From the NCBI GenBank assembly GCA_051294905.1, contig CM119372.1, positions 6,574,001 to 6,638,000 of the forward strand: 64,000 nucleotides of DNA. Reading direction: 5' to 3'. Both the position numbers and the translations under genes were made by a program. Source of the DNA: Botryllus schlosseri (taxonomy: Eukaryota). The notes beneath the pieces are model-generated. The model was not told the DNA's origin, did not search any database, and saw only the letters and a list, made by a program, of their open reading frames with translations. Positions 1,431-35,037 of this stretch are shown here, one piece after another (position 1 is the first letter of the stretch; each line of letters starts with the position of its first letter).

Positions 1431-1519
1431 ATGAAGATTTACAAGCAAACACCAATTTATGTTCTGCTAGCGAGTTTCGTATGGAGTTGGAGCTCATTAC
1501 TCGTCAGTGCTACATGGTG
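1431..1519 (+). CDS. Wnt: Wnt exon 1 (signal peptide MKIYKQTPIYVLLASFVWSWSSLLVSATW|W)
   Basis: ATG followed by a hydrophobic signal peptide, ending TGG TG|gtgagt. This is the typical Wnt split-Trp phase-2 intron, and it joins the phase-2 acceptor at 6152. Confidence 0.85.
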
Positions 1520-4500: not shown

Positions 4501-7500
4501 CATAAGTCGCAGACATGCGTCGTAATCAGCATCATATACACCATAAATCGATATACGGCATGGATTCTGAATAGGTACGAATTGATATCCGTTTTATATG
4601 TTTATATATTGTCTGTGATTTGCGACATTCCCGCATCGGATACTCGAAACCGCAACTCGACATATTTTCTGCGGTTCAATTGCAGGGGTCAACTATATGC
4701 CTACAAAGTTTTTATATAACCTGAAAGCATCTTTTAAAGCTACGTGTCATTAACAACGGCATCATGAATCACGGCTATGCTTTGATATGGTGCATGTGTG
4801 AAGATTACAGATATAATCATTATGAATCATTCATACAGTATTCTATATGGACTTGCTGTAAGACAATAACTCTGAGCAGGAATATAAAAATCTTACATGT
4901 GTTGTCATGTACATCCCGTTTTATTCATAATAAGGACAACCACCTTAGTTCGGTGGTTACATCACGATGTGCTGGTTTTCAATTTGGGAGTTGTACTCCC
5001 TGGCTGACCGAAGGAACGATGGACACTGTACAGTTATATATCCCTCAAATTTATGTGTTTTAGTTTTAGCACATGCTGTATTATGGTGGGCTTGCGAATA
5101 ATCCAGTTCGACATAAACTAACTCAATTTACTAAGACGCATGGGCAATTAGGTAATTCACAACTGGAGTCAGATGACTCTTATTTCCGCCTATCTGCTTT
5201 GAGTAAGCCTCCCTGACGCGTAGAGTTGTAATTCTTCGCAATAAGCAAATAAAAGAGGGATTTCTTCAGGTTCATAATCACTACGAAAATCCCGAGGGCC
5301 CAGCTTCAAAGACTATGAATGGAAAGTTATGATGGGAAATGCGACATTTCATCTTGCTCTGTCTTACCGTAAAACATATATGGGCTGCGGACGCGGTGAC
5401 GCACTTTACAAATGAACGATGCCGTCCCGGGCATATTACACTGAAAAGTCATCCGCGCAGTATAAGGTTACGACTTCTTCCGCAGATATTTTTTGGCTCA
5501 TTTCGTTCCTAAATGATCGCATTCTTTGTGAGACGATTTCGTTGGTCGGTAAAGGATTAATATTTGGTTTCCCTGGCGTTAAAACAGGGAATCACTGCGT
5601 TTCGTATTTGCGCTGCTGTAAATTATCGAAATGTTTTGTATGGTGTCCCGTCTTGTGAAATCTCAATAGAAAACAGAACCCGTGTTGAAATAAAAGGTCG
5701 TCTGCGTCTTACAGATCGTAAATCTCAGTTCATCCAAGTAAGTGAATACATCAGATCGCACGGAATCGTGAATTAATATTCAATACTGGAAATAAATCTA
5801 AAGGCGCAATTAATCTTCCCAACCATAGGAAATGACATGTGACGACATTGTGCATCAAACGTTCACCGAGAAACAGGAAGTCTCAAGTCATATGTTGTTG
5901 GCAGAACTGTAATAAAACGTTTAATGACGATTTTGATTTCACGTACTGGCCACAGAAGCTTATCCGATTACAATTGATAAAAATAACTCTCTCTCTCTCT
6001 CTCTCTCGCTCTCTCTCTGATGTTTCAGATTGCATAATGCATATTCAATGTGTCAGCATCTCAGTATCTGCTACTTTCAGTTTCACAACACACGGCGAAA
6101 TGACCGTTTTAATTACCACTCACCAACATCTCAATAATTATTACATTACAGGCTACTCAACGTTCCTCCACACGATCCTACGGAGCATACGACCAGCACA
6201 AAGGGGACAAAACTCTACTGCAACTCACTGCGTTTCCTTTCGCAAAGGCAACGAGAACTGTGCATACAACACCCCGATATAATGAGAAAAATTAGCGAAG
6301 GGGTGCATTTAGGCGTACGGGAATGTGGATATCAATTCCGCAACAGCAGATGGAACTGTACAATGTACCCGGGACGACCAAAGCAACACGCATTTGAACC
6401 GGTAATGCGAAATAGTAAGTATATGGACCCTCAATCAATGTGGGATGAGGTGTCATACTATATATAAGTTGAGCAACTGGGCATATATGGGCACAAACCA
6501 GCATTTAATCAAGTATTATAGCACAAAATAACATCAATTACGAATATCGCTTTAACAAAACTTTAGGATTTAGGAATGAAATTCGCGTATGTGGCGTTTG
6601 GGAACTCAGTCATCAATCATTACTACGGCCACTCTCATATGGCATGTTAGCGTAGGAAATAGGTGAAATTAATAGGAAACGTATCAATGATCAAAACATT
6701 AGGGGGCGAATCACACTGACAATTTCTGCGAAATACGTTTCGTTACAAATACCGGAATTACAAAATCAACAATGTGTCGGCGGAATTCCATTAAATTGCC
6801 ATGAAAATGGCTTTGTGTTTGGTTACAAAATTTGTCATGAAAACGATCAGGTTGCGGAGCGGCATCGCGTCGTTCGGCATGCCTCAGACGGAATGCGGAC
6901 AAAATTTTATCCTGGCGATAATGATCGAACGGTTAACAGTAAATATTGATTGCAATTGAAGGTGTTGATGTGGTCTTTGTGAATGCGAATGCCGTGTCTT
7001 TGAAGTAACTCACTTCTTTATTCGCCGACAGTCAAGTTCGTTTACTAGCTAACACTCAAAGGTCACAAATACGAAATTTGTATTTCCGAAATTCGCGTGG
7101 TTTGAAAGATAGAGAAGTAACGGTGCAGCATGCCACTGCGTAAACCAATGCTGCACGTCCATGAATCTTTCATACGCTATCGTAAACTGGCGATGCACAA
7201 TGACTTATGAAACGGCCTGCTACATATATATGTACTTGATGGTACATTAGTACACAGATAATTTAAAGTGACAATATATAAACATGAAAACTATATGAAT
7301 TACTACATTGTGAATATAGCCAGGTGAATGTTCGCAATTTCATCAAAGTTAAAGTAACAGAATCATACAAAAGTATACTAACATAGTTCTCTGAAACAAT
7401 AAATCTCAATAACCCCGTATCATTTCATCCATTGTACGGCCATGTTTGCTTGATACAGCGATGATCGCGCGTTCGCTAGCCAACTGATGGTAAGATCATA

Positions 7501-10500
7501 ATTATCTCTGCATGAGAGGAAAGGTTTTGATTAGATTCCTAAACGCCGAGTTCAATGTTGACAGATGGGATTGATTACAAACGCAAACAGCGTCACCAAC
7601 TTCACATGTACGATGCTCATTTAATCTTGACCTTGACAGAAAATGATAGTCGGATGTTTACGCAAGGCCGCAATAGTTAAACATCCGCTCTGCCAGGGTA
7701 TCGAGATTACCTTTACCCGTAGCGTCTAATGATTTTTAGGGAATTCGCGGTTCGCTGAAATCTCGATGAAGCGACTTAGTTTAAGGGATACTCATTATGT
7801 CCCGAGAAAGATCTTTATTCAGCTGACGGAAAAAGGGCTTTCGACACCGTGCGGTCAAGTATCATGGTAAAATCCGACGCTTGGCTGCAAATCTTGACGA
7901 TTCCCAAGCTCTCGGTACACGTGCTTACTGGAACGACACATAGATTTTCGCTTGTTGCATTGACCCGTCCCTAACCGGTTGAAGAGTATAGGAATCTCGT
8001 GTCGTGCCATTTACCGATCCGCTAGTAGTAATCTTAGACAGAAGAGAGAACGATCAAACGAAATTTAACGGAGCTCAAAACGACAAAAACTCGTAGATTA
8101 TAACTCAATACTATGTATTCAAATAGTAGCAAGGATTTCATTGTGTTGCTCCAAGTAGAAATTGGCGGTTTTGACTTCTCAGTCGTCGATAATGCCGTTT
8201 AACTTTTCAAATTTCGTATATAGGCGCGGGAATGTGTGCCGTATATAGTACACGGTGTTCATCGCTTATTTGGGTCCGGCGTGAAAGCAATTTTCAAGAT
8301 CTAAGTTTGTTCTGCAATCGAATCACAGCGCGATTGACAAACATGGAGGGGTGAATGGGAACGTCAGACATCTGGAATTTATCAATGCGGCCCGTTTGAT
8401 GTATATTCTGCGGTGCGACACCGAAATCTGTTTAATGTTGAATGTAAGCTTGACCAACCCACTTAAATTTTGCTAACAATAGCTGGCCGATTAAACGATC
8501 TCATATCCTATTCTTATCCGTAGTATTTGCGTCAAGGCGTAAACTTGGCAGCTTCCACTATGCTGATCGAACGCGACTGCTAACGGGTGTTGGAAAATAA
8601 ACTGAACGTATAATACCTACAAAGTCGCGATTGTAACATATTTATTACATCATGCACCATGAGTAACGCTTATAAATAGACAATAGGGATTCACCTGGTA
8701 AGAGCAGATTGCTAGTTATCGTAGTTTCGATGTTGTCTTATGCTGTAGAATCATAGACACCGTATATTCTCTCAGGATACTAGGTTCCACCTCTACCTTC
8801 CAAGATATATTAACTTAACTTCGATGTCATGTTACGTTTTGGCATAAGCATTTCCACAAAAGCACTACCACAGTTATATCCCCCATACATTGATTGAAGA
8901 TATCAAATTTTACTATATGTTACATTACAGCACGTGGATTTTGTACCCCCAGCGGAAATTTTTACTCTTTTTACGATTCAGCGTGTGCTGACTTGGCGAC
9001 TGGCATACCTAAAGTGTATGAGCGCGTCCCTCCCATGGAAGTGTCATGGTCATTATTTTTCGCAGAGGGCAAAGAAAGAGCCTATATCAACGCTATATTA
9101 TCTGCGGCTGTTTCATTCACTGTCACGGAAGCATGTTCACGCGGCGAGTTGAAACTGGACTGCGGGTGCGCCCGAATGAAACGGAATTATGATCACGAAG
9201 CTCGAAGAGTGAGTACGGCGTTGTGAAGTTCGTGTTCGTGAAGAGGTGCTAAATCATGCCCCGCGTCGATTCGGGTCCGGAAGATATACATTATGCATTC
9301 CTTCAATTCTTTTCCTGTTCAGCCAAGAGCCCGTGACAGGCCAGAACTATGACATAGGGTTGTAATCAAGTCACAAGATCCTGAGTCACAAGTCAATTAT
9401 ATACTTTTATAGTTTTGACTCTCGAGACAATTCGAGTCATTTTCAATTCACCACCGCGTCAAATTCGAGTCCAAGTCAGGATTCAAGTTCGAGTCCGAGT
9501 CACAGTCTTGACACTCAAGTCCTATTCCAAGTCATTATGTTCACTGTTCCAGTCCTGTTCAGCTCACTTTTTACAACTCACTTTACACAGTTTCTGCCCC
9601 TATTTTACAAATACCAGTACTGATAGACGTGGTAACTTACTCTTCTTCGAAGTTGCAATGAAATGCCCGTCTTGGCCGACCGAGATCGAGTCACGCGTAA
9701 TGACTCGAGTACAAGTCAAGTCGAGTTAATACACAAATTGCCTCAACTCAAGTCTGGAGTAGAGTCATTTTTCATATATGAGGAAATGTCCCGAGTCAGG
9801 TCGTGTCAGACTCGGATCTAGCCATGAGTCGAGTCATTGCACATTTGCTATGGCAAGCATCGGTTACCTTATGGCAGGGCTGCCCAACCTTTTCAGCCAA
9901 AGGGCCACATTCAATCGACGAAATATTTCGTGGGCCACAAGCCGCGCGAAGCGCGAAAATTTTGTCGAAGTTCATAGCTGAATAATATTGTCACTTGACT
10001 ATATTGCGGGTCTGCAGTATATCGCTGGGCTCAGTTTGCCAGCACTGGACTATTCAGCGCCTGGACATATCAATTTCGAAAGCTTCGACCAACATGCGTC
10101 AATCGTTTTGTGCCTCGGTTTCATAGTCGACGGTCTTTCTGCGAACGCAAACGCTAGGTCGCATATGTTGAACGACACTGTCTCGTAATCGAGAATATAG
10201 TTTGACTCAATCTGATACATTAGGTATTCTTTCATTTTCACAAAGGGGTAACAATATTAGAAGCAAGAAATCGAGTGACAACATGTTGCGCGAAGCGTGT
10301 AGCAAATATTTACTTTTGATAAATTTATCGCAAATTATTCTGCTTTATTGTAGTGTACGAAGATCTACCGAAGTGTGACTGGCTCATGGAAATGCCAATG
10401 CGTCGTAACTGATATTTTAGTCATAAGATCTCAAGTGTTGCTTCCAGACTAATCAAATTTTTGGTTGGCCTTGCAAGTTCACAATCTGTGCAATTCATTT

Positions 10501-13500
10501 TTTATAACATTACGAATTTCGGAAATTACCTCGCGGGCCACTCAAAACCTTCTCGCGGGCCACATGTGGCCCGCGGGCCACGGGTTGGCCGGCCCTGCCT
10601 TATGGATACCACTAAACCAGAATAAGACCCAGCTTTAGCGGGAGCGAACCAATTTCTGCAATTTCTATCGGCAAAGCATTTTTGGATTAAGGGTGCGTTA
10701 CGTTGTTTCAGACATGTGAAAATTCATTCTCTTCGCTGAGACGCTGATATTTCCAGAAATAAAAATAGTTTAGCAACAAGGAATATGGCTGCATTCGATA
10801 TTCAGCGAATCTGCTGTTAACTATTCATTCTTACCCCGACCGAAGAACGGAAGTCCCTCGGCGTTATTCATTTGACCTTATTTTAACTGCGTAGTTTCAT
10901 CACAAGTCGAACCCTAATAGGATTTGAGGTATTACTCCCTTTGGCGCATGAAACCTCCGCCGAAATTTCCCACGATCCGAATTCTACCCCTTAGTGCACG
11001 GGTAAAGGATGAGTAGCTGCAACATTTCTGCGGTTTGCGATCATTCGCGGCGCATCAAAATATATTTTCGGCAAGTCCTGGTAGCACAGGTGCGAATGAA
11101 CGGGCGCGTGTCTCGCAACACTTGAATCGAAATTTGTTTCACGAGCATTACTGTGTTGAATATCCGCATCGGATCTTCGGCAGAGCACTCAATTTGAAAT
11201 TTGAAGTTATGTCGTGGTTATCCGTCGATTTCAAATATTTGTCTCACCCTCATAACAGGATTACATTTCAGAAAGGTTTCGCTCAAGCAGTGATAATCGT
11301 GCAAATTCCTTTGTTCCGAAGTAAATTTCTTGGGAATTTCGTCAAGCAAAGTTAAGTCAAACGATTTAGGGAAAGATCGCGGCTCTCACTAGAATCCACA
11401 TTTTCCATTTTGCGTCTGGAAACGCGCTCCGGTCGCGTATAAAGCGACATACTGTGCAATTCGTGCAGAGTTATAATATTATGGTCCTGGTCCCTGGGTG
11501 CGGGGTACGCTTTTGTCAAGAAATAAATTTGGCTCTTTTCTACTTAAGACTTGAGGCTATTATATTATTGTGAAGCAACACACAAAACTATAATTAATAT
11601 GGTAGACTAGGGTTGTTCCCAAAATCATTAGCATGAACCGACACTAAACGCAGTTGTTTTACAGAGATCATTTGAATGGGGAGGCTGCTCCGATGACGTG
11701 ACTTTCGGCGATGGCATATCCAGAGATTTTTTCGAGGAAAATATTCGCAACTCCCGAAAGGGATTGGAAGTATTGGATTTACATAATAAAGCTGCAGGAC
11801 GCAGGGTAAGTCATTTCGACAATCAATAATGAATGTTACAAGCAGAAAGACGGACATAGTACTCTAAATATGGTATATGGCAGTGGTTCTCAACCTTTTT
11901 GGCTTCGCGGACCACTTTTTGGCCCTCACGGACCCTCGCGGACCCCCTAAAATTTTAGTTCAAATTTAGCTCAATTGTGGTGCAACCGTCATCTGTCTTG
12001 TGCAAATATGAACTGTAGGCTTGTGATAAACAGCAATAAAATGAATTTTATTGAATATAACATCATACTATTTACGTAGAAATTGGGTAGACTCTTATCA
12101 TTTTAAGCTAATTTTGCAGCTTTATTTCTTAAATACGTGATTGTGTCTTGAAAATCCGCGTCTTCGATTTAATATGAATGAGTGCCGACAATCCATTCCC
12201 CCAAAGATAGATGGAGGCTAATCTAATATTAATGCGTAACGCTTCTGACGATACGTTTGGTGTGGTCGCAACATTTATGGCACCAAAATAAAGAAACATC
12301 TTTTTAATAAACATGTCACGTCTAGCCTAGCCATTTTTATCTAGCATCTCATCTTGAAGATGTTCTGGAATAGCGGTTAGGTATATTACAGGATAAAATG
12401 TATTTCGTGGCTAGGTTCCAATCCCTTCATTGGGACAAATTAGGGAAATACATCAGGAACTTTCATTTCAGACGACTGTACAGTGTACACTAATTTGATG
12501 AGACTTCAAATCGAAAAGGTTTCGCAAACATTACGACGACACCCTGATTGACCTTACTATCTCCTTACTTTTATTTTTTTCACAAACCCCAACATAACGT
12601 CTCTAAACAGCAATATTGTTGTAAAAGAGGGTTATTGGCAATTTGGCAATTAACATGAATTTGCACAGTAGGATACTTCATGTCGGACGATTATTCTGAT
12701 GACGTGAGGCATGACGTTTTAGCAGTTGTGGAGCGAAACTGCCTCATGCGTCCCTAACTTAGAAAAAATACAAATTAGGTTATCAATCACTTAACTAGTT
12801 TAGAGGTCTCGCGGACCCCCTGAAATTGCTTCGCGGACCCCCGGTTGAGAACCATTGGTATATGGTCTCAAACTGCAGTTGGTACCGTGAAAAATATTGG
12901 CAGCACCTATTTTCCACATAAAACCACCGTATTCGAGCTGTAAACAAATGATTTTCATAAGTGGCCCTATTGCATTTCAGCAATCTCGGTGGTATTAGGC
13001 TACGTGTCATCGCTTCTTAACACTTTACGAACTGTTCATGAAAATATGACTGTGTAATTCGTCTTCTTGAAATCAAAGTAGCTTATGTCTATTTTCCACA
13101 TTTTGACGAAATTAACTTTGTATAATGTTTTCATATTCTTTCGGTGAAATCTTGGTTATGATTTACTTTCAGACAATGTGATAAACATAAACATGACCAA
13201 GATATGGCCGAAAAAATGAAAATTTTACAAAAATCTAATTTTCTATAAATTTGAAAAATGGACATAAGCTACATTGATTCTACTCCGATGAATTACTACA
13301 GCGACATGTTTCGGAGTGACGCCGATTTCAAATTAATAATAGTCTGCGCTCGAGATTACGGGACCAAGATTTGTCATTGATTTCGCTTACCAACACACAC
13401 CATTTCATTTTCATCGCTTGTCCATTTTATCATATTTTCTGTTACTTTTGAGTCAATGGCCATGGCCATGGCTTGTGTCTGATCGAAAGACCTCTGCAAG

Positions 13501-14762
13501 TCATCACGACCACTTCCTATCTCTTTATTTTATCGTAATTTTATGGTGTTTTGAACTGATGAAATTATTAGTAAACTAAACTGAAATGAACTGAAGCGAA
13601 CGCTTCCTTATCGCTGCGTTGTTACTGATTCGACTGATATATGACGTTTCTAATAAATTAAGATTCCCACGCGCTTTCACTTCCATTTTCCTCGGCGGCA
13701 TCCTCAAAATCGTGCGCGTTCGATCAAAACTGAGATTAGGCTTATTTTAGTCGGGCGTTTATGGTATTTTACACCGGTATGACAACAAAATCCGTCGGCG
13801 CTGATCGCGTGAACAATTGCCAAGAAAGAATATCGCGAAACGTATTGACATTTTTAGCATTTCGTCCCTACAAAACGTCATGAGTCAAACATAAATCGAC
13901 TCACACGACAGCGAAGACGGGTTCATGTCACTTTTAATTCCGAAAGTAAATTATGACTGGGAAATTTCTCGCGAGGTGGCATAATACCCAAAATAAGATC
14001 CAGCAGCGCAGTCACCATTAGTACGTCTTACTTCATCTTTGATATGACGTCTCATCTCTCGCTTGGGCGTTGACTGGAAAATTGTTTCCAAAGTACAAAG
14101 CTACCGATCATTACTGAGTACGCTCGATCCCGGTTTCTCGCGTCGATGAAACAGTGAGAATAGCTCTATCGCGATTTTTAATCCCAATTATACGGTTACG
14201 TCACGCTGATATTGATTTATATTCGCTGCGTAGGCGGGAAACTAACGCATCCACAAATCCACAATGTCGATTCGCTTTCATGTCTAATTTGGGTTGCTTT
14301 TGGTTTTAGGAGATCGTTCGGAATACCGTAACAGCTTGTCGCTGCCACGGAATAACTGGCTCGTGTCAGCAAAACGTCTGCTGGCGGGCGAAGCCGCGAA
14401 TACGCAACGTCAGCACTGAACTGTTCCAGCGGTTCAACTCAGCGCTCAAGGTGCGTGTGCGAAAGTCACGCGTGCAGCCGGTCAAGTCGAGACGATCTCT
14501 CGAACTGAGCGACTTGATCTATCTGAGAAATTCTCCAAAGTTTTGTAAAGCAAATTTATCGAGAGGCTCCTACGGAACGGCCGGGCGCCGGTGTAACGGC
14601 ACTACCACCGGGCCTGGTAGTTGCAGCTATATGTGCTGTAACCGCGGATACAACACGGTGGAAGAAACGAAGGAGTCTAGTTGCAACTGCAAGTTCGAGT
14701 GGTGCTGCAACGTCAACTGCGATACGTGCCGTGAAATGCAAGTGGAAAACTACTGCAAGTGA
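1431..14762 (+). CDS. Wnt: Wnt family ligand, 5 coding exons (1431-1519, 6152-6414, 9066-9208, 11665-11805, 14310-14762), 362 aa; subfamily unresolved
   Basis: All introns are GT-AG with matching phases (2,1,0,0); the spliced length is 1089 nt = 363 codons. The product has a signal peptide ending ATWW, ECGYQFRNSRWNC, EACSRGEL-DCGC, FEWGGCSDD, LHNKAAGR, CRCHGITGSC, and a C-terminal CCNRGY..CNCKFEWCCNVNCDTC..C; 24 Cys in total. Confidence 0.96.
5986..6018. repeat. (CT)n microsatellite in Wnt intron 1
   Basis: ctctctctctctctctctctctcgctctctctct. Confidence 0.9.
6152..6414 (+). CDS. Wnt: Wnt exon 2
   Basis: ttacag| acceptor; LYCNSLRFLSQRQRELCIQHPDIMRKISEGVHLGVRECGYQFRNSRWNC; |gtaagt donor. Confidence 0.95.
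9066..9208 (+). CDS. Wnt: Wnt exon 3
   Basis: ttttcgcag| acceptor; GKERAYINAILSAAVSFTVTEACSRGELKLDCGC; |gtgagt donor. Confidence 0.95.
9355..9847. mobile_element. hAT-type MITE, family A (GACTC/GAGTC-rich), in Wnt intron 3
   Basis: Starts TAGGGTTGTAA; flanked by CTATGACA/CTATGGCA (7/8 TSD); homologous to the copies at 15334 and 17509. Confidence 0.85.
9875..10597. mobile_element. hAT (Charlie/Buster-like) MITE in Wnt intron 3
   Basis: TIRs CAGGGCTGCCCAACC / GGTTGGCCGGCCCTG; perfect 8-bp TSD CCTTATGG; GCGGGCC subterminal repeats. Confidence 0.92.
11665..11805 (+). CDS. Wnt: Wnt exon 4
   Basis: ttttacag| acceptor; RSFEWGGCSDDVTFGDGISRDFFEENIRNSRKGLEVLDLHNKAAGRR; |gtaagt donor. Not in the ORF track. 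Confidence 0.95.
11881..12857. mobile_element. hAT (Charlie/Buster-like) MITE in Wnt intron 4
   Basis: TIRs CAGTGGTTCTCAACC / GGTTGAGAACCATTG; perfect TSD GTATATGG. Confidence 0.93.
13069..13280. repeat. Imperfect ~210-bp palindrome (fold-back MITE remnant)
   Basis: atcaaagtagcttatgtc...gacataagctacattgat, with internally matching inverted arms. Confidence 0.7.
14310..14762 (+). CDS. Wnt: Wnt exon 5 (terminal)
   Basis: ggttttag| acceptor; EIVRNTVTACRCHGITGSCQQNVCW...DLIYLRNSPKFC...GTAGRRC...CCNRGY...CKFEWCCNVNCDTC...YCK-stop. Confidence 0.97.
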   Translation, partial: EIVRNTVTACRCHGITGSCQQNVCWRAKPRIRNVSTELFQRFNSALKVRVRKSRVQPVKSRRSLELSDLIYLRNSPKFCKANLSRGSYGTAGRRCNGTTTGPGSCSYMCCNRGYNTVEETKESSCNCKFEWCCNVNCDTCREMQVENYCK

Positions 14763-15079
14763 TGACGGTAGAGCACAGTGAATGACGTCAATGCAAAGAT
14801 ACGTATACTCGGTCGGGAGGCCGGAGATGGGGCGCATTGCGCGTCACGCCAAGCGTGAAGCCTGGAATATGCGAAGTCCCGCCGTTGGGCACGACAATCT
14901 TGCGAAGAACTCTATCTACAGAATCGATTCACCAGCATGCCTTTTCTATTCGCCAATATCCTTCAAATCAGTATACATGCAACAGTATTTGTTATCATAT
15001 TTATTATAGCCTTTCAATTGACATTGGAGGCTACCGTTTTCTTCCGTTTTTCAACTTCTTCAAATTATTATTTGATTTT

Positions 15080-19182: not shown

Positions 19183-19629
19183 TTATTATTATTAATATTA
19201 ATATGGTTAAAAGTTGTAGTGGCGCTTATCTCCCTTAAGGGTCTGGTGCACCACGGTCTGAAGTTACCTACTGGTATAAGTACCCTTGCAATGTATTTCA
19301 ACCTCGTCTATATACGAATCAAATCTTAAAGGATTCTACGACATGATAGCACGAATTCAGCCACAGGGGTTAATAGCTCGGGCTGGACTAATAGGTTATA
19401 AGTCGTGAATGGGATGTCATGATTACGGCATGACTCAATGAGAAAGGACCGTTGAAAATCGTATCTTGCACAATTCAGTAGAAAATGGTCGACAGTTTCA
19501 GTGATATTACAATGGAGACATAGCGGAGTATCTGAACAATGTGAACATCCTATTTTGAACGAATGGGCGTTAAGCCTACAATGGCCGGAGCGCAGACGGA
19601 ACATGATCACCTCAAATTGCCACAGAGGA
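19183..19629 (-). mobile_element. 5'-truncated non-LTR retrotransposon (LINE) 3' end: ORF2 C-terminal Cys/His domain, 3'UTR and (TAA)n tail
   Basis: Minus strand reads FEVIMFRLRSGHCRLNAH..CLHCNITETVDHFLLNCARYDFQR..stop at 19326. The RLRxGH..CxxC..ETVxHxLxxC pattern is typical of I/R1-group ORF2 C-termini. A (TAA)n tail lies at 19183-19200. Confidence 0.88.
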
Positions 19630-20125
19630 ATACCGGGCACTATATGGCGAGGTGGGTGCCACTTCAAGAGACTCCAACTGATTGTGGTCGTTCGGCATCC
19701 CTCTATCTGTTCATTACATCGCATTGCGTCTTTTGTATATCGCATTTTACATTATGTGTGTGTCTTGGGCAGATGAAAATATGATCTGTCCCATTGATTG
19801 ATTGATTGTTTGATCTGGCACTAAACCGAGGTGGATGTAATATCGAGAGTCCGCACCTGATCATTTCAACCTCCTATCTTTTCATTACATCGTATTATGT
19901 CTTGTGTGTCGCAGTGTACATTGTATGTGTCTTGAGTGGATCAAAACATAAAAGCCTACGAATACGATTGAATCAACGAGACGTTTTTAATTACAATTTC
20001 CATATTCTCCACAATAACCCTCCTCACGGGTACATCAATTAGGCTTAGCACATGACCGAAGGTTACTGGGAAGATAGACATTTTAAAAAATATTTTGACC
20101 TTTCATTATATACATTACCTTACAA

Positions 20126-26057: not shown

Positions 26058-29000
26058 ATGGAGCGCACAGCCGAAGGTTCCGCCGGTGAGTAATCGCGCA
26101 TGTCATCCTGCAAAAAGCAGTCGTCTGAAATATTGCGTATACTCTGTATTAGAATGGTTATTGAAGCATATTCGTTAAAGCTATTAGCAGATGAAGTAAT
26201 CTCAACGCTGATAAAACTGTTGGTCTGATAAAGTGATGTTGATAGAGTATAATCTGTGTTGACCAAATGCTATAAGCCCATCCGCAATGAAGGCAATGTC
26301 TATCCTAAATATTTCCCAGGTTTTGTCGTATTGATTGTAAACATAGAGTCACCGTTTCTACAACTTTTATGAGTCTGCTTACGCGATTTACACTTATGAC
26401 GTAGAGATATCCGTGACCAGAAAGGGATACCAATCACACTCATATACGGTCGGCTCGTCAAGCTATCAAGCCGCATTTGGATACAAGGCAAAGCGCCACA
26501 CTGATCATGGATTGCTGCGGTACAACCGCGGGTATGTCTTACTAAATCGAGGGATGACCATCGTTGAGTCGATCATAAATAACGGGAATTTATGAATCAA
26601 CAGCTTGTATCTCTAATTCTTGGTCAGTGCATTGCATTGTAGATAGGGGTCGCAGATACATTATGTAAAGAAATTCACCGTTGCTTCAATCTAAGGTACT
26701 CCAAGGAGGGTACCATACATTCGGTTTCCGCAGCCGAAAATTTCGCCCAACTGCCCGGTATACTGAACAGCCGCACCGATGAGAAGGAAGAGCTTAGTTC
26801 ACTCAACGATAGGTTTGCAACCTACATCGATAAGGTGAAGAGGCTGGAAGCTCAAAACAAATCTCTAACCACGAAGATCATTGAGGTAAACAAGGGCGAG
26901 GGTTCCGTTCTTCAATTGTCTGACTATATTCAGTACGGCACCACGTGGATTCCCATATAGTTCCCAAACTTTATTGTGTTATCCATCGGAACATGATAAT
27001 ATTAATAGAAAGAGTGAGAGGTGCTTATCCCATTCACGGCCTTGTACACTACAGTTCTGGGTTAATTTACAAGATATACAGTATATACGGATTCAAAGTA
27101 ACGATAAGATCTTTCGATGGTATGAGCCAATCGACTTACTAAAGTAAGGAGCGGATATACAGACACAAAAGCAAACATCGCCATTATGTACCGGTCTGGT
27201 CATTCATTATGTTGAGAAGGAAAAGCCAACAGATATTCGTAAGTCATCAAAATTGCCCCAATGAAAGAAATTGCAGATTATGATCAGTCAATGGCGTTAG
27301 TCTGCCGGATTATGACGGCCATTCATGGAATATATTGGTTAAGTTAAAATATTAGGAAAGTAAGCTATATAGTATGCTCGCCGATCTGCCATTCTATATT
27401 CTCTGAAGGAAGTTTTTATTAATAACATGAACAGAGCTATATTTGACAACTAATATAATTTTTATGGCTCGCGTGGGAAATTCGCAGCGTAAGTAACTTT
27501 TCTACGACTCTTGATATACCAATTTCGCAAATGTAATCCACAAATCAACGCTAAATTAAAAACAGCACCATTTATCAACAGCTTGAATCGAGCAGGAGCA
27601 TGGTAAGTCGCTCTGGTGACATGTACGACGACGAACTTGCAAGGCTCCGTCGCGAAATTGAGAAACTGACGCACGACAGAGCGGCGTGCGAGATCCAGTT
27701 GCACAACTGTGTTCAAGATTTGCAGGAATCGGAAAAAAGGTATACGAACATCAGTTTTATCACGCCTTTCCATACCTGCATGTATGCTGGACCCATGGCA
27801 GCCTATCATTGTCTATTGTTCCTTACAGAGAACAGCAGGAGGCGAATGCACGGCGTGAAGCAGAGCGCACCATAAAATCTCTGAGGAAGGATGTAGACGA
27901 CGCCACTCTATCAAGAATGGATTTGGAGAGAAGGGTTGAAACATTGCAGGAGGAGTTGGAGTTGCTTAGGGCAACTTCGAATGAGGTATCCTTTTAAATT
28001 ATTATTGCTGTATCGGACGGATACCAATACGGACTGATTCGGTGTCACATTATTTCACGGTCAACCGTGTCGCTGTCGACCAACAAGTGTCCTAAATTGA
28101 ACCATTGTGACCAACTAGGAACGTCTATATATCGTTATACTGCTCTAGTTGGACAGGACAGCCGTAACACAACAACCTTATAATTCTAGATATCACGATG
28201 TAATAATTGTCTGAATCGAACTAATGAATTTAGTTAAGAATCTATCCACGCGGCAATCTGCAACAACTCACGAACGATTCTTACAGATATGGATGCTCGT
28301 ATTCAGACATACTTCATAGCTAAATAAATAATCCGCAGACTTGGTGTTTGCTTTTCTCATGTTTTCAACTGATGTACTAATTAGTTTCGCTCTGTCTTAT
28401 GTACAGGACATTGAGACTTTGAAATCACATGTAACGGTTACACGCGAAGATGTACTCGATTCTGCTCCCGAGCCGATTTGGGACCTCACCGACTCCCTAA
28501 AAGATATCCGCGCGGCGTACGAACAATTGTCTGCGAATAACACAACCGAAATTGAGAAAATCTACAAGAAAAATGTAAGTTGTCCAACAATGAACTACCG
28601 CAAAATCGAACGGGTCGTATTCAGATTGCAGATTTGCAAGCACAAGTTAAGAAAGCTAACCAAGCTCTGGCCACGTCCAAAACCGACTCGGTGGAAACGC
28701 GCAGACAGTTGCAGTCGCTGACCGCCGACATCGAAGGTCTGCGAAGCACGGTAAAACCTCCTCAGCGACCTCCAACGGCCGCACAATATTACAAGTTTAT
28801 ACCTACTATTGCAGAACGCGTCACTCGAAGCACAAATCTCCGATTTGGAGGGCCGTCTGGAAAAGGAAGGCATGGAAGCGAGAGACAAAATACAGGTGAA
28901 ACGTTAATTATTTTATAGACGCAATCCATTTGAAAATATACCCGTTTCTGTTTAGGAACTGGAAGAGGAACTGCAAAAGTCACGCGATATGTTGGCTAAC

Positions 29001-34113: not shown

Positions 34114-34543
34114 CAGGGGCGGGAAACTTCTCCAGTCGAAGGGCCGGATGTGGGAAAATGAAGTACTTGGCGGGCGGATTCTTGAATCGATACATTAATC
34201 ACATATTTATCCACCCATACAAGGAATAAATCGCATTTAATGTACATTTTAAGAGTAACGCATAGAGACCAAACGCAGTAGTCAATGAATTTATTAACGT
34301 AATATACTTCAATAGCTGTGGGCGATTAAAGTTGTCAACAAGTTCTTTGAATTGTCGCTGCCTCGTGGACGTACAAACCCTTAGTAAAGAATGCATGTGA
34401 ACATATGCTACATCGGAACGTCGCTTTGTCTTACATATGTTCATGGTCGAAAAAGGTTTGCTAGCAAATTATTATGTAGGACCGGAAGCTGTCCGCGAGC
34501 CGCTCAAAATCCCGTCGTGGGCGGTATATGTTGCCCGCCCCAG
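34114..34543. mobile_element. hAT (Charlie-like) MITE
   Basis: CAGGGGCGGGAAAC...GTTGCCCGCCCCAG; TSD CTTTAGTT/CTTTATTT. Confidence 0.8.
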
Positions 34544-35037
34544 CTTTATTTGCTGAAAGGTGTTGTCAGGTATCGTGCGCACCTCATAGTTCAAAATATA
34601 ATGAAAGTGATTATCATGAGATTTTTTTGTATTTGTATTTCTTCAGTAAAATATTATTACTTTGTGGTAACTGTGCCTGTCGCCCGTCTAGGCTAAACGA
34701 CTATGAGTACAGCTTATATCTTGATGTTAACTTTTCCAAAAACCATGAATGAATACTTTACTTTTACAAGATGTATGCCATATAAAATTTCGATTTATGA
34801 TGAAGCTATGTAACAAAATTTTACAATGGAGAAATTCATTAATGAACATTTCACCAGTAATAAAAGATAATAAAGAGGTGCCGAGTAAAATCGAAATTAT
34901 GCAATTGCTAGTTATGTTTTGGTTGGGATAAGGCCATGAGGTAGGAGTATAGTTACGGTGTTAATATTTCCAGCTAAGAAGAAAAACAAAATATTTTGAT
35001 GTTTTTTCAAACGTTTGACTTTCTAGTCTCTTTAATC

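Follow-up and report, generated by a model that had tools for sequence, protein, structure and literature searches.

Threonine at the lipid-acceptor position of hairpin 2 in a WntA protein of the ascidian Botryllus schlosseri

Porcupine (PORCN) esterifies palmitoleate to a serine in hairpin 2 of Wnt proteins, and Wntless (WLS) then exports the Wnt, as described in PMC10112924, PMC12612157 and PMC13434646. A 2014 review names WntD as the only Wnt in which the acceptor serine is not conserved (PMC4201215). In the stretch of DNA analyzed here (64,000 nucleotides of Botryllus schlosseri contig CM119372.1, hereafter "the window"), positions 14337-14366 (+) read TGT CGC TGC CAC GGA ATA ACT GGC TCG TGT and encode CRCHGITGSC, with threonine where mouse Wnt3a carries its palmitoleoylated serine, S209. 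A preliminary description of the sequence offered two readings, either a Wnt acylated on threonine or a non-lipidated, Porcupine-independent Wnt that would be more diffusible, and it left the matter to a check of the codon in reads and cDNA, an alignment of tunicate orthologues and a phylogeny. Which of the two readings do the gene and its relatives favor?

The threonine codon lies within an open stretch of 150 codons, the final exon of a Wnt gene (Table 1). The coding sequence consists of five exons, with GT-AG ends in all introns, and its 1089 nt encode a protein of 362 amino acids with a single terminal stop, 24 cysteines, four N-glycosylation sequons and threonine at residue 228. Pfam family PF00110 scored above its curated cut-off in the four exons scanned (exons 2 to 5). 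The cysteine frame of the Wnt family is present, and the N-terminus encoded by exon 1, which is hydrophobic as judged from hydropathy rather than by a dedicated signal-peptide predictor, matches that of the Styela and Clavelina orthologues. Hairpin 1, held by exon 4, carries Phe168 and Trp170, which residue mapping equates with W150 and W152 of Wnt3a. Thr228 aligns with the hairpin-2 acceptor serine of the Wnt3, Wnt3a, Wnt5a and Wnt7a chains in the PDB. Hence, sequence, gene model and PDB alignment agree with the preliminary description that threonine replaces the acceptor serine; serine at the tip of hairpin 2, a trait of canonical PORCN substrates, is absent from the window protein. A degenerate pattern for the threonine hairpin matched once in the window and in none of 100 shuffled sequences, and a motif scan of the 64 kb found no second Wnt.

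Table 1. Features of the WntA gene in the window
Feature	Position	Strand	Basis and remarks
WntA exon 1, coding part	1431-1519	+	Start codon and predicted signal peptide; gene model; hydrophobic N-terminus
WntA exon 2	6152-6414	+	Pfam wnt, E 5.8e-14; splice joints
WntA exon 3	9066-9208	+	Pfam wnt, E 5.2e-08; X7 contig piece 9066-9208
WntA exon 4	11665-11805	+	Pfam wnt, E 3.7e-09; joint 11804-14309
WntA exon 5, coding part	14310-14762	+	Hairpin 2, linker, hairpin 3 (Trp343) and stop codon; Pfam wnt, E 6.9e-48; PDB Wnt matches
Hairpin 2 (thumb), Cys222-Trp237, predicted Porcupine/Wntless recognition element	14337-14384	+	Alignment to the PORCN-bound WNT3A peptide, chain 7urd; residue mapping
Thr228 codon ACT	14355-14357	+	Position of the palmitoleoylated serine (Wnt3a S209); the contigs of X5 and X7 have the same codon
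3' UTR, minimum extent	14763-15060	+	X5 contig 6 ends at 15060, X7 contig 7 at 15011

An AlphaFold model was available for the Styela orthologue rather than for the window protein, with pLDDT 68 and pTM 0.62. The ten Foldseek matches of this model at E<=0.001 were all Wnts, and its hairpin can be superposed on the WNT3A peptide bound to PORCN at 1.3-1.4 Å over 19 residues, with a non-significant E-value. The ESM Atlas returned generic Wnt clusters only.

Other features were detected in the window. High-copy interspersed repeats occupy 9239-10639 and 11574-12974, in Wnt introns 3 and 4, where summed contig depth reaches hundreds to thousands and many contigs have loose ends. Exons of an intermediate filament gene lie at 26643-28918 (+), with Pfam Filament (PF00038) in the five stretches scanned. 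At 19326-19751 (-), an open stretch of 141 amino acids without a Pfam match at E 0.01 contains a Cys/His motif that we take to resemble the end of a non-LTR retrotransposon protein. Another open stretch, 34480-34752 (+), shows a dibasic site followed by CCxxxC, reminiscent of the start of an insulin A chain; the last cysteine is missing at the usual spacing, no Pfam match was found, and the likeness is probably due to chance.

The codon was compared with sequencing data in 4 of the 24 runs listed. X7 contig 7 is a spliced sequence of 1422 nt in which exons 1, 2, 3 and 5 are aligned pieces, while exon 4 is implied by a 140-nt gap and by the joint between 11804 and 14309. This contig differs from the window at four positions over 14309-15011 (14477, 14865, 14892 and 14917), and X5 contig 6 at six over 14309-15060 (14477, 14759, 14865, 14892, 14917 and 15019). 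All these differences fall outside the threonine codon; therefore, both contigs carry ACT. Two independent studies thus yield the same codon in spliced sequence, which excludes an assembly error. X7 and X5 are not recorded as RNA runs, but the introns are absent from their contigs, with the breaks at GT-AG ends; exons 1 and 2 are joined by splicing in X23, X7 and X5. Raw RNA reads from X23 give thin coverage, with two reads spanning the joint of exons 1 and 2 and two spanning that of exons 4 and 5; those from X21 cover essentially nothing but the 3' UTR in this region. Five coding differences were listed, of which three are synonymous and the remaining two are R62M and Q268H. The view that a gene with an intact frame and 24 cysteines does not look like a pseudogene is thus borne out by the five-exon model and the spliced contigs. 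An X5 contig in which exon 2 is spliced to exon 3 and continues unspliced into intron 3 (9066-9486) was also seen, and represents a retained-intron or partly spliced form.

Assignment to a subfamily relied on identity and phylogeny. The first homologue search, in which exon 5 was compared with longer proteins, gave an uninformative single protein among 148 candidates. The nearest named proteins are the ascidian orthologues Styela clava XP_039267863.1 (58% identity), Clavelina lepadiformis XP_076813686.1 (47%), Ciona intestinalis XP_002121451.2 (47%) and Ciona savignyi H2ZHF4 (45%), which share the N-terminus and the cysteine frame of the window protein; over exon 5, identity reaches 68% with P0002, an unnamed protein. 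These identities make a stolidobranch-like ascidian the likely source. In a maximum-likelihood tree of 48 rows (LG+G4), the window protein and its ascidian orthologues form one clade (support 100/99) inside a 15-row clade with the protostome WNTA of Euperipatoides kanangrensis (CDI40108.1; 99/97), the one reference in that tree named WntA by its source; amphioxus WntA was not among the rows. An earlier FastTree of 118 rows gave the same grouping with weaker support (0.88). In BLAST against 15 named references, WNTA was the best match for the window protein and for three orthologues. A residue signature points in the same direction: at the position of Wnt3a T216, where the window protein has Val235, valine or isoleucine, as in protostome WntA, is found in 97 of 101 WntA-like proteins and in 5 of 264 other proteins. 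This signature was derived in the present analysis and not from the literature.

Database names suggest other identities. When the two groupings they imply were submitted to AU tests, Wnt2 (from the name Wnt-2b-like) was rejected with p 3.5e-4, and Wnt4 (from Wnt-4-like) with p 2.4e-9. Published surveys describe ascidians as having kept WntA and lacking Wnt4 (PMC6060547, PMC10542563), and ascidian WntA as automatically annotated as Wnt4-like (PMC10542563). WntA went undetected in embryos of two ascidians, and WntA ESTs came from adults (PMC6060547). Altogether, the gene is an ascidian WntA, and it is intact, spliced and expressed.

When the acceptor residue was examined in the five other ascidian WntA genes found, threonine appeared in four: P0002, Styela (P0172), Ciona intestinalis (P0171) and Ciona savignyi (P0021). 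Threonine is thus common at this site in ascidian WntA, a finding that the preliminary description had named in advance as counting, if such threonines are normally acylated, against its case. Clavelina (P0173) has serine and is nested among the threonine-bearing genes in the tree, which implies either that threonine dates from the ascidian base and reverted once or that it arose twice. All six genes, that of the window included, have a hydroxyl residue at the acceptor. Outside the ascidians, the 101 WntA-like proteins of the pool all carry serine, unlike the window protein. The Ciona savignyi protein also has alanine, beside its threonine, at the position of Wnt3a G210; in Wnt3a, threonine at G210 abolishes secretion (PMC13434646).

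Threonine acceptors are not confined to ascidian WntA. Among 388 Wnt records, the acceptor is serine in 372, threonine in 10 and cysteine in one, the motif being unmatched in five; after clustering at 80% identity, the figures for 226 clusters are 213, 8 and 1, with 4 unmatched by the pattern. In the same clusters, the unacylated serine two residues downstream is changed to threonine in 10, alanine in 9, aspartate in 2 and glycine in 1. The two substitution patterns differ with a Fisher p of 0.045, a weak result as it is uncorrected for kinship and 5 of the 8 threonine clusters belong to one ascidian clade. That acceptor substitutions are mainly to threonine nonetheless indicates a retained hydroxyl, within the limits of a weak test.

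Threonine-acceptor proteins in the pool also include a Styela Wnt2 (P0244), a Wnt of the jellyfish Rhopilema (P0167) and the unnamed P0133. Since Styela WntA has threonine as well, two Wnts of this type coexist in one ascidian genome. The Styela Wnt2 (XP_039265163.2) also has a lysine directly before its threonine and a long basic C-terminal tail. A pattern scan of metagenome contigs, which asked for threonine only and has no serine denominator, gave 53 loci (L001-L053). A Wnt hairpin-2 motif is encoded at each of the 53; clustering gave 27 sets at 95% identity and, at 60%, 6 groups, of which the largest, a widespread threonine-type Wnt, comprises 44 loci. One pair is Wnt8-like (L013:983-1474 and L044:748-1239; the best PDB match of L013 is Wnt-8, E 4.6e-36). 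For the 44-locus group, PDB scores slightly favor Wnt5a, and 39 of 41 long segments have the C..LC..C spacing of Wnt8-like proteins. Threonine was found in separate clades formed by Styela Wnt2, Rhopilema with L020, the L013/L044 pair and the 44-locus group. A tree of the C-terminal half (exon 5 only), built from 151 columns with the acceptor column omitted, requires at least 8 changes between serine and threonine, a rough count as the tree is poorly resolved at depth and contains long-branch joins. Because the protein pools came from threonine-bearing queries and the metagenome scan looked for threonine only, these data demonstrate recurrence and inflate frequency.

Does the rest of the protein look like a substrate for lipidation and export? 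Lipidation of mouse Wnt3a depends on G207, export requires H206, G210, W150, W152 and W333, and K204, T216 and W218 contribute, with T216A and K204A lowering secretion (PMC13434646). The window protein has identical residues at six of these sites, namely G226 (G207), H225 (H206), G229 (G210), W170 (W152), W343 (W333) and W237 (W218). Non-identical equivalents are R223 (K204), F168 (W150) and V235 (T216): arginine occurs at the K204 position in 60 of 361 serine-type Wnts, phenylalanine at the W150 position in 65 of about 156 scored clusters, and valine belongs to the WntA signature. Around the threonine, R223, H225, G226, G229, W237 and the disulfide spacing are as in canonical PORCN substrates. 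As the export residues are kept and the three that differ are common in serine-type Wnts, the export surface looks intact.

The preliminary description had also singled out CQQNVCW and LHNKAAGR as divergent motifs. Both are present, and part of their divergence is real. Each of the QQN residues occurs in at most 1% of the 361 serine-type proteins, and the KA of LHNKAAGR in one of 274 other motif-bearing proteins. Much of the divergence is, however, subfamily character: the valine is the norm in WntA, the QQN residues resemble those of other ascidian WntA proteins, and the glutamine before the valine is common to the seven ascidian WntA records. The KA site, in turn, varies, and 20 dipeptides or more were seen there; in HNxxAGR, the ascidian orthologues have ND, GE or SE.

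Because the replacement by threonine is common to most orthologues and to several unrelated invertebrate Wnts, the protein is likely still lipid-modified. The sequence evidence thus points, with good probability, to O-palmitoleoylation of Thr228 by Porcupine, and to a WntA that is exported by Wntless and binds Frizzled like an ordinary lipidated Wnt. WntA would enter the ER by means of its predicted signal peptide; hairpin 2 would be held by disulfides Cys222-Cys236 and Cys224-Cys231, predicted by homology with the WNT3A peptide; Porcupine would form a palmitoleate ester on the hydroxyl of Thr228; and secretion through Wntless, followed by Frizzled binding, would complete the route. Rios-Esteves et al. 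reportedly found in 2014 that serine or threonine, but not cysteine, can serve as the acylation site of Wnt3a (Ser209); a search of the open-access literature found no passage confirming acylation of a threonine-substituted Wnt3a. A natural parallel is provided by bullfrog ghrelin, in which serine is replaced by threonine at the site of O-acylation by an MBOAT enzyme and Thr3 is octanoylated by GOAT, at a lower level (PMC8316800). The substrate, the enzyme and the fatty acid all differ in this case, and the likeness is an analogy only.

Some observations count against acylation on threonine. The acceptor position bears a non-hydroxyl residue or is deleted in certain Wnts elsewhere. Cysteine occupies it in Oscarella pearsei (P0135). 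A Wnt-4-like protein of the hoatzin, Opisthocomus hoazin (P0146), has leucine there and lacks the first hairpin cysteine. Glandiceps talaboti P0003 (XP_077998206.1) has two tandem Wnt domains, both with a shortened hairpin 2 from which the acceptor is deleted. The window hairpin itself has no threonine at the T216 position and contains the unusual QQN, and the alanine of Ciona savignyi at G210 belongs to the same side of the balance.

The second reading of the preliminary description, in which ascidian WntA would be unlipidated, secreted independently of Porcupine and Wntless and more diffusible, has WntD of Drosophila as its model. WntD is the weakest match of the window protein among PDB Wnts (E 1e-4), and presumably has a non-hydroxyl residue at the acceptor position. 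Both proteins lack the canonical acceptor serine (PMC4201215), and WntD, which is unlipidated and Wntless-independent, proves that such a Wnt is possible (PMC10112924); in addition, secretion and signaling have been described for some mutant Wnts that lack acylation (PMC7873896), and the window protein has unusual residues following the acceptor loop. Unlike WntD, however, the window protein keeps a hydroxyl together with the Wntless-contact residues. Over six ascidian genes the acceptor is only threonine or serine, serine being that of Clavelina, and threonine is also the dominant replacement in unrelated Wnt clades. A lipid-free WntA is therefore improbable, as the acceptor toggles between serine and threonine and the residues for lipidation and export are retained, and the acylated alternative is favored. 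P0003, P0135 and P0146 are better candidates for lipid-free Wnts, or for decayed copies, than the window WntA.

A variant would be that Thr228 is poorly acylated, so that most of the secreted protein lacks the lipid and the pool acts as a weak agonist or a competitor. The reduced acylation of threonine by GOAT speaks for it, and the absence of detectable WntA from embryos of two ascidians may mean that the gene is restricted to later stages, in which case constraint could be lower. Yet threonine has persisted in Stolidobranchia-like and Phlebobranchia genes despite an identity of only about 47% between them, and the Wntless-contact residues are intact; we consider this variant very unlikely. 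A milder version, in which Thr228 is lipidated and its acylation is perhaps less efficient than that of serine, is compatible with the preferred reading.

Slimmer still are the chances that the lipid has shifted to Ser230, two residues downstream, leaving Thr228 unmodified. Ser230 is found in the window protein, in P0002 and in both Ciona genes, but the position is threonine in Styela and alanine in Clavelina and tolerates alanine, aspartate and glycine across Wnts; besides, the unchanged spacing of the hairpin cysteines places residue 228 in the acceptor register. Finally, an assembly error, a rare allele or a decaying pseudogene, which has nothing in its favor except the low raw-read depth at the codon, is refuted by the identical codon in spliced contigs of two other studies and by threonine in the orthologues, and is further opposed by the open frame with 24 cysteines and by the three synonymous changes among the five listed coding differences.

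Compared with vertebrate Wnt3a, the window WntA thus has the same cysteine spacing in hairpin 2 and identical equivalents of H206, G207, G210, W218, W152 and W333, while it has threonine for Ser209, arginine for Lys204, valine for Thr216 and phenylalanine for Trp150; it also belongs to a different subfamily, one that vertebrates have lost (PMC6060547). The WntA subfamily was already known, and public records of Ciona and Styela already show the acceptor residue. The novelty lies in the recurrence of threonine at the acceptor in several Wnt lineages. In the open-access literature we found no report of natural threonine-acceptor Wnts, although the residue may already be visible in subscription papers or in the supplementary alignments of PMC6060547; term look-ups in PMC6060547, PMC8220140 and PMC10542563 gave nothing on either palmitoleoylation or Porcupine.

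The present evidence adds no second lipid-free Wnt. Instead, the data show natural threonine acceptors that have become fixed in several lineages of invertebrate Wnts, and so correct the statement that serine is found in all Wnts but WntD (PMC4201215). A speculation that we regard as doubtful is that threonine-type Wnts (ascidian WntA, tunicate Wnt2, Wnt8, jellyfish and other invertebrate Wnts) make up a repeatedly evolved, selected class, in which the ester of a secondary alcohol might slow acylation by Porcupine or removal by Notum and thereby tune the release and range of the lipidated ligand. The orthologues of Clavelina (serine) and of Ciona and Styela (threonine) offer a natural pair for effects of serine and threonine on handling by Porcupine, Wntless and Notum. 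If acylated, threonine-type Wnts would be natural threonine-linked substrates of Porcupine.
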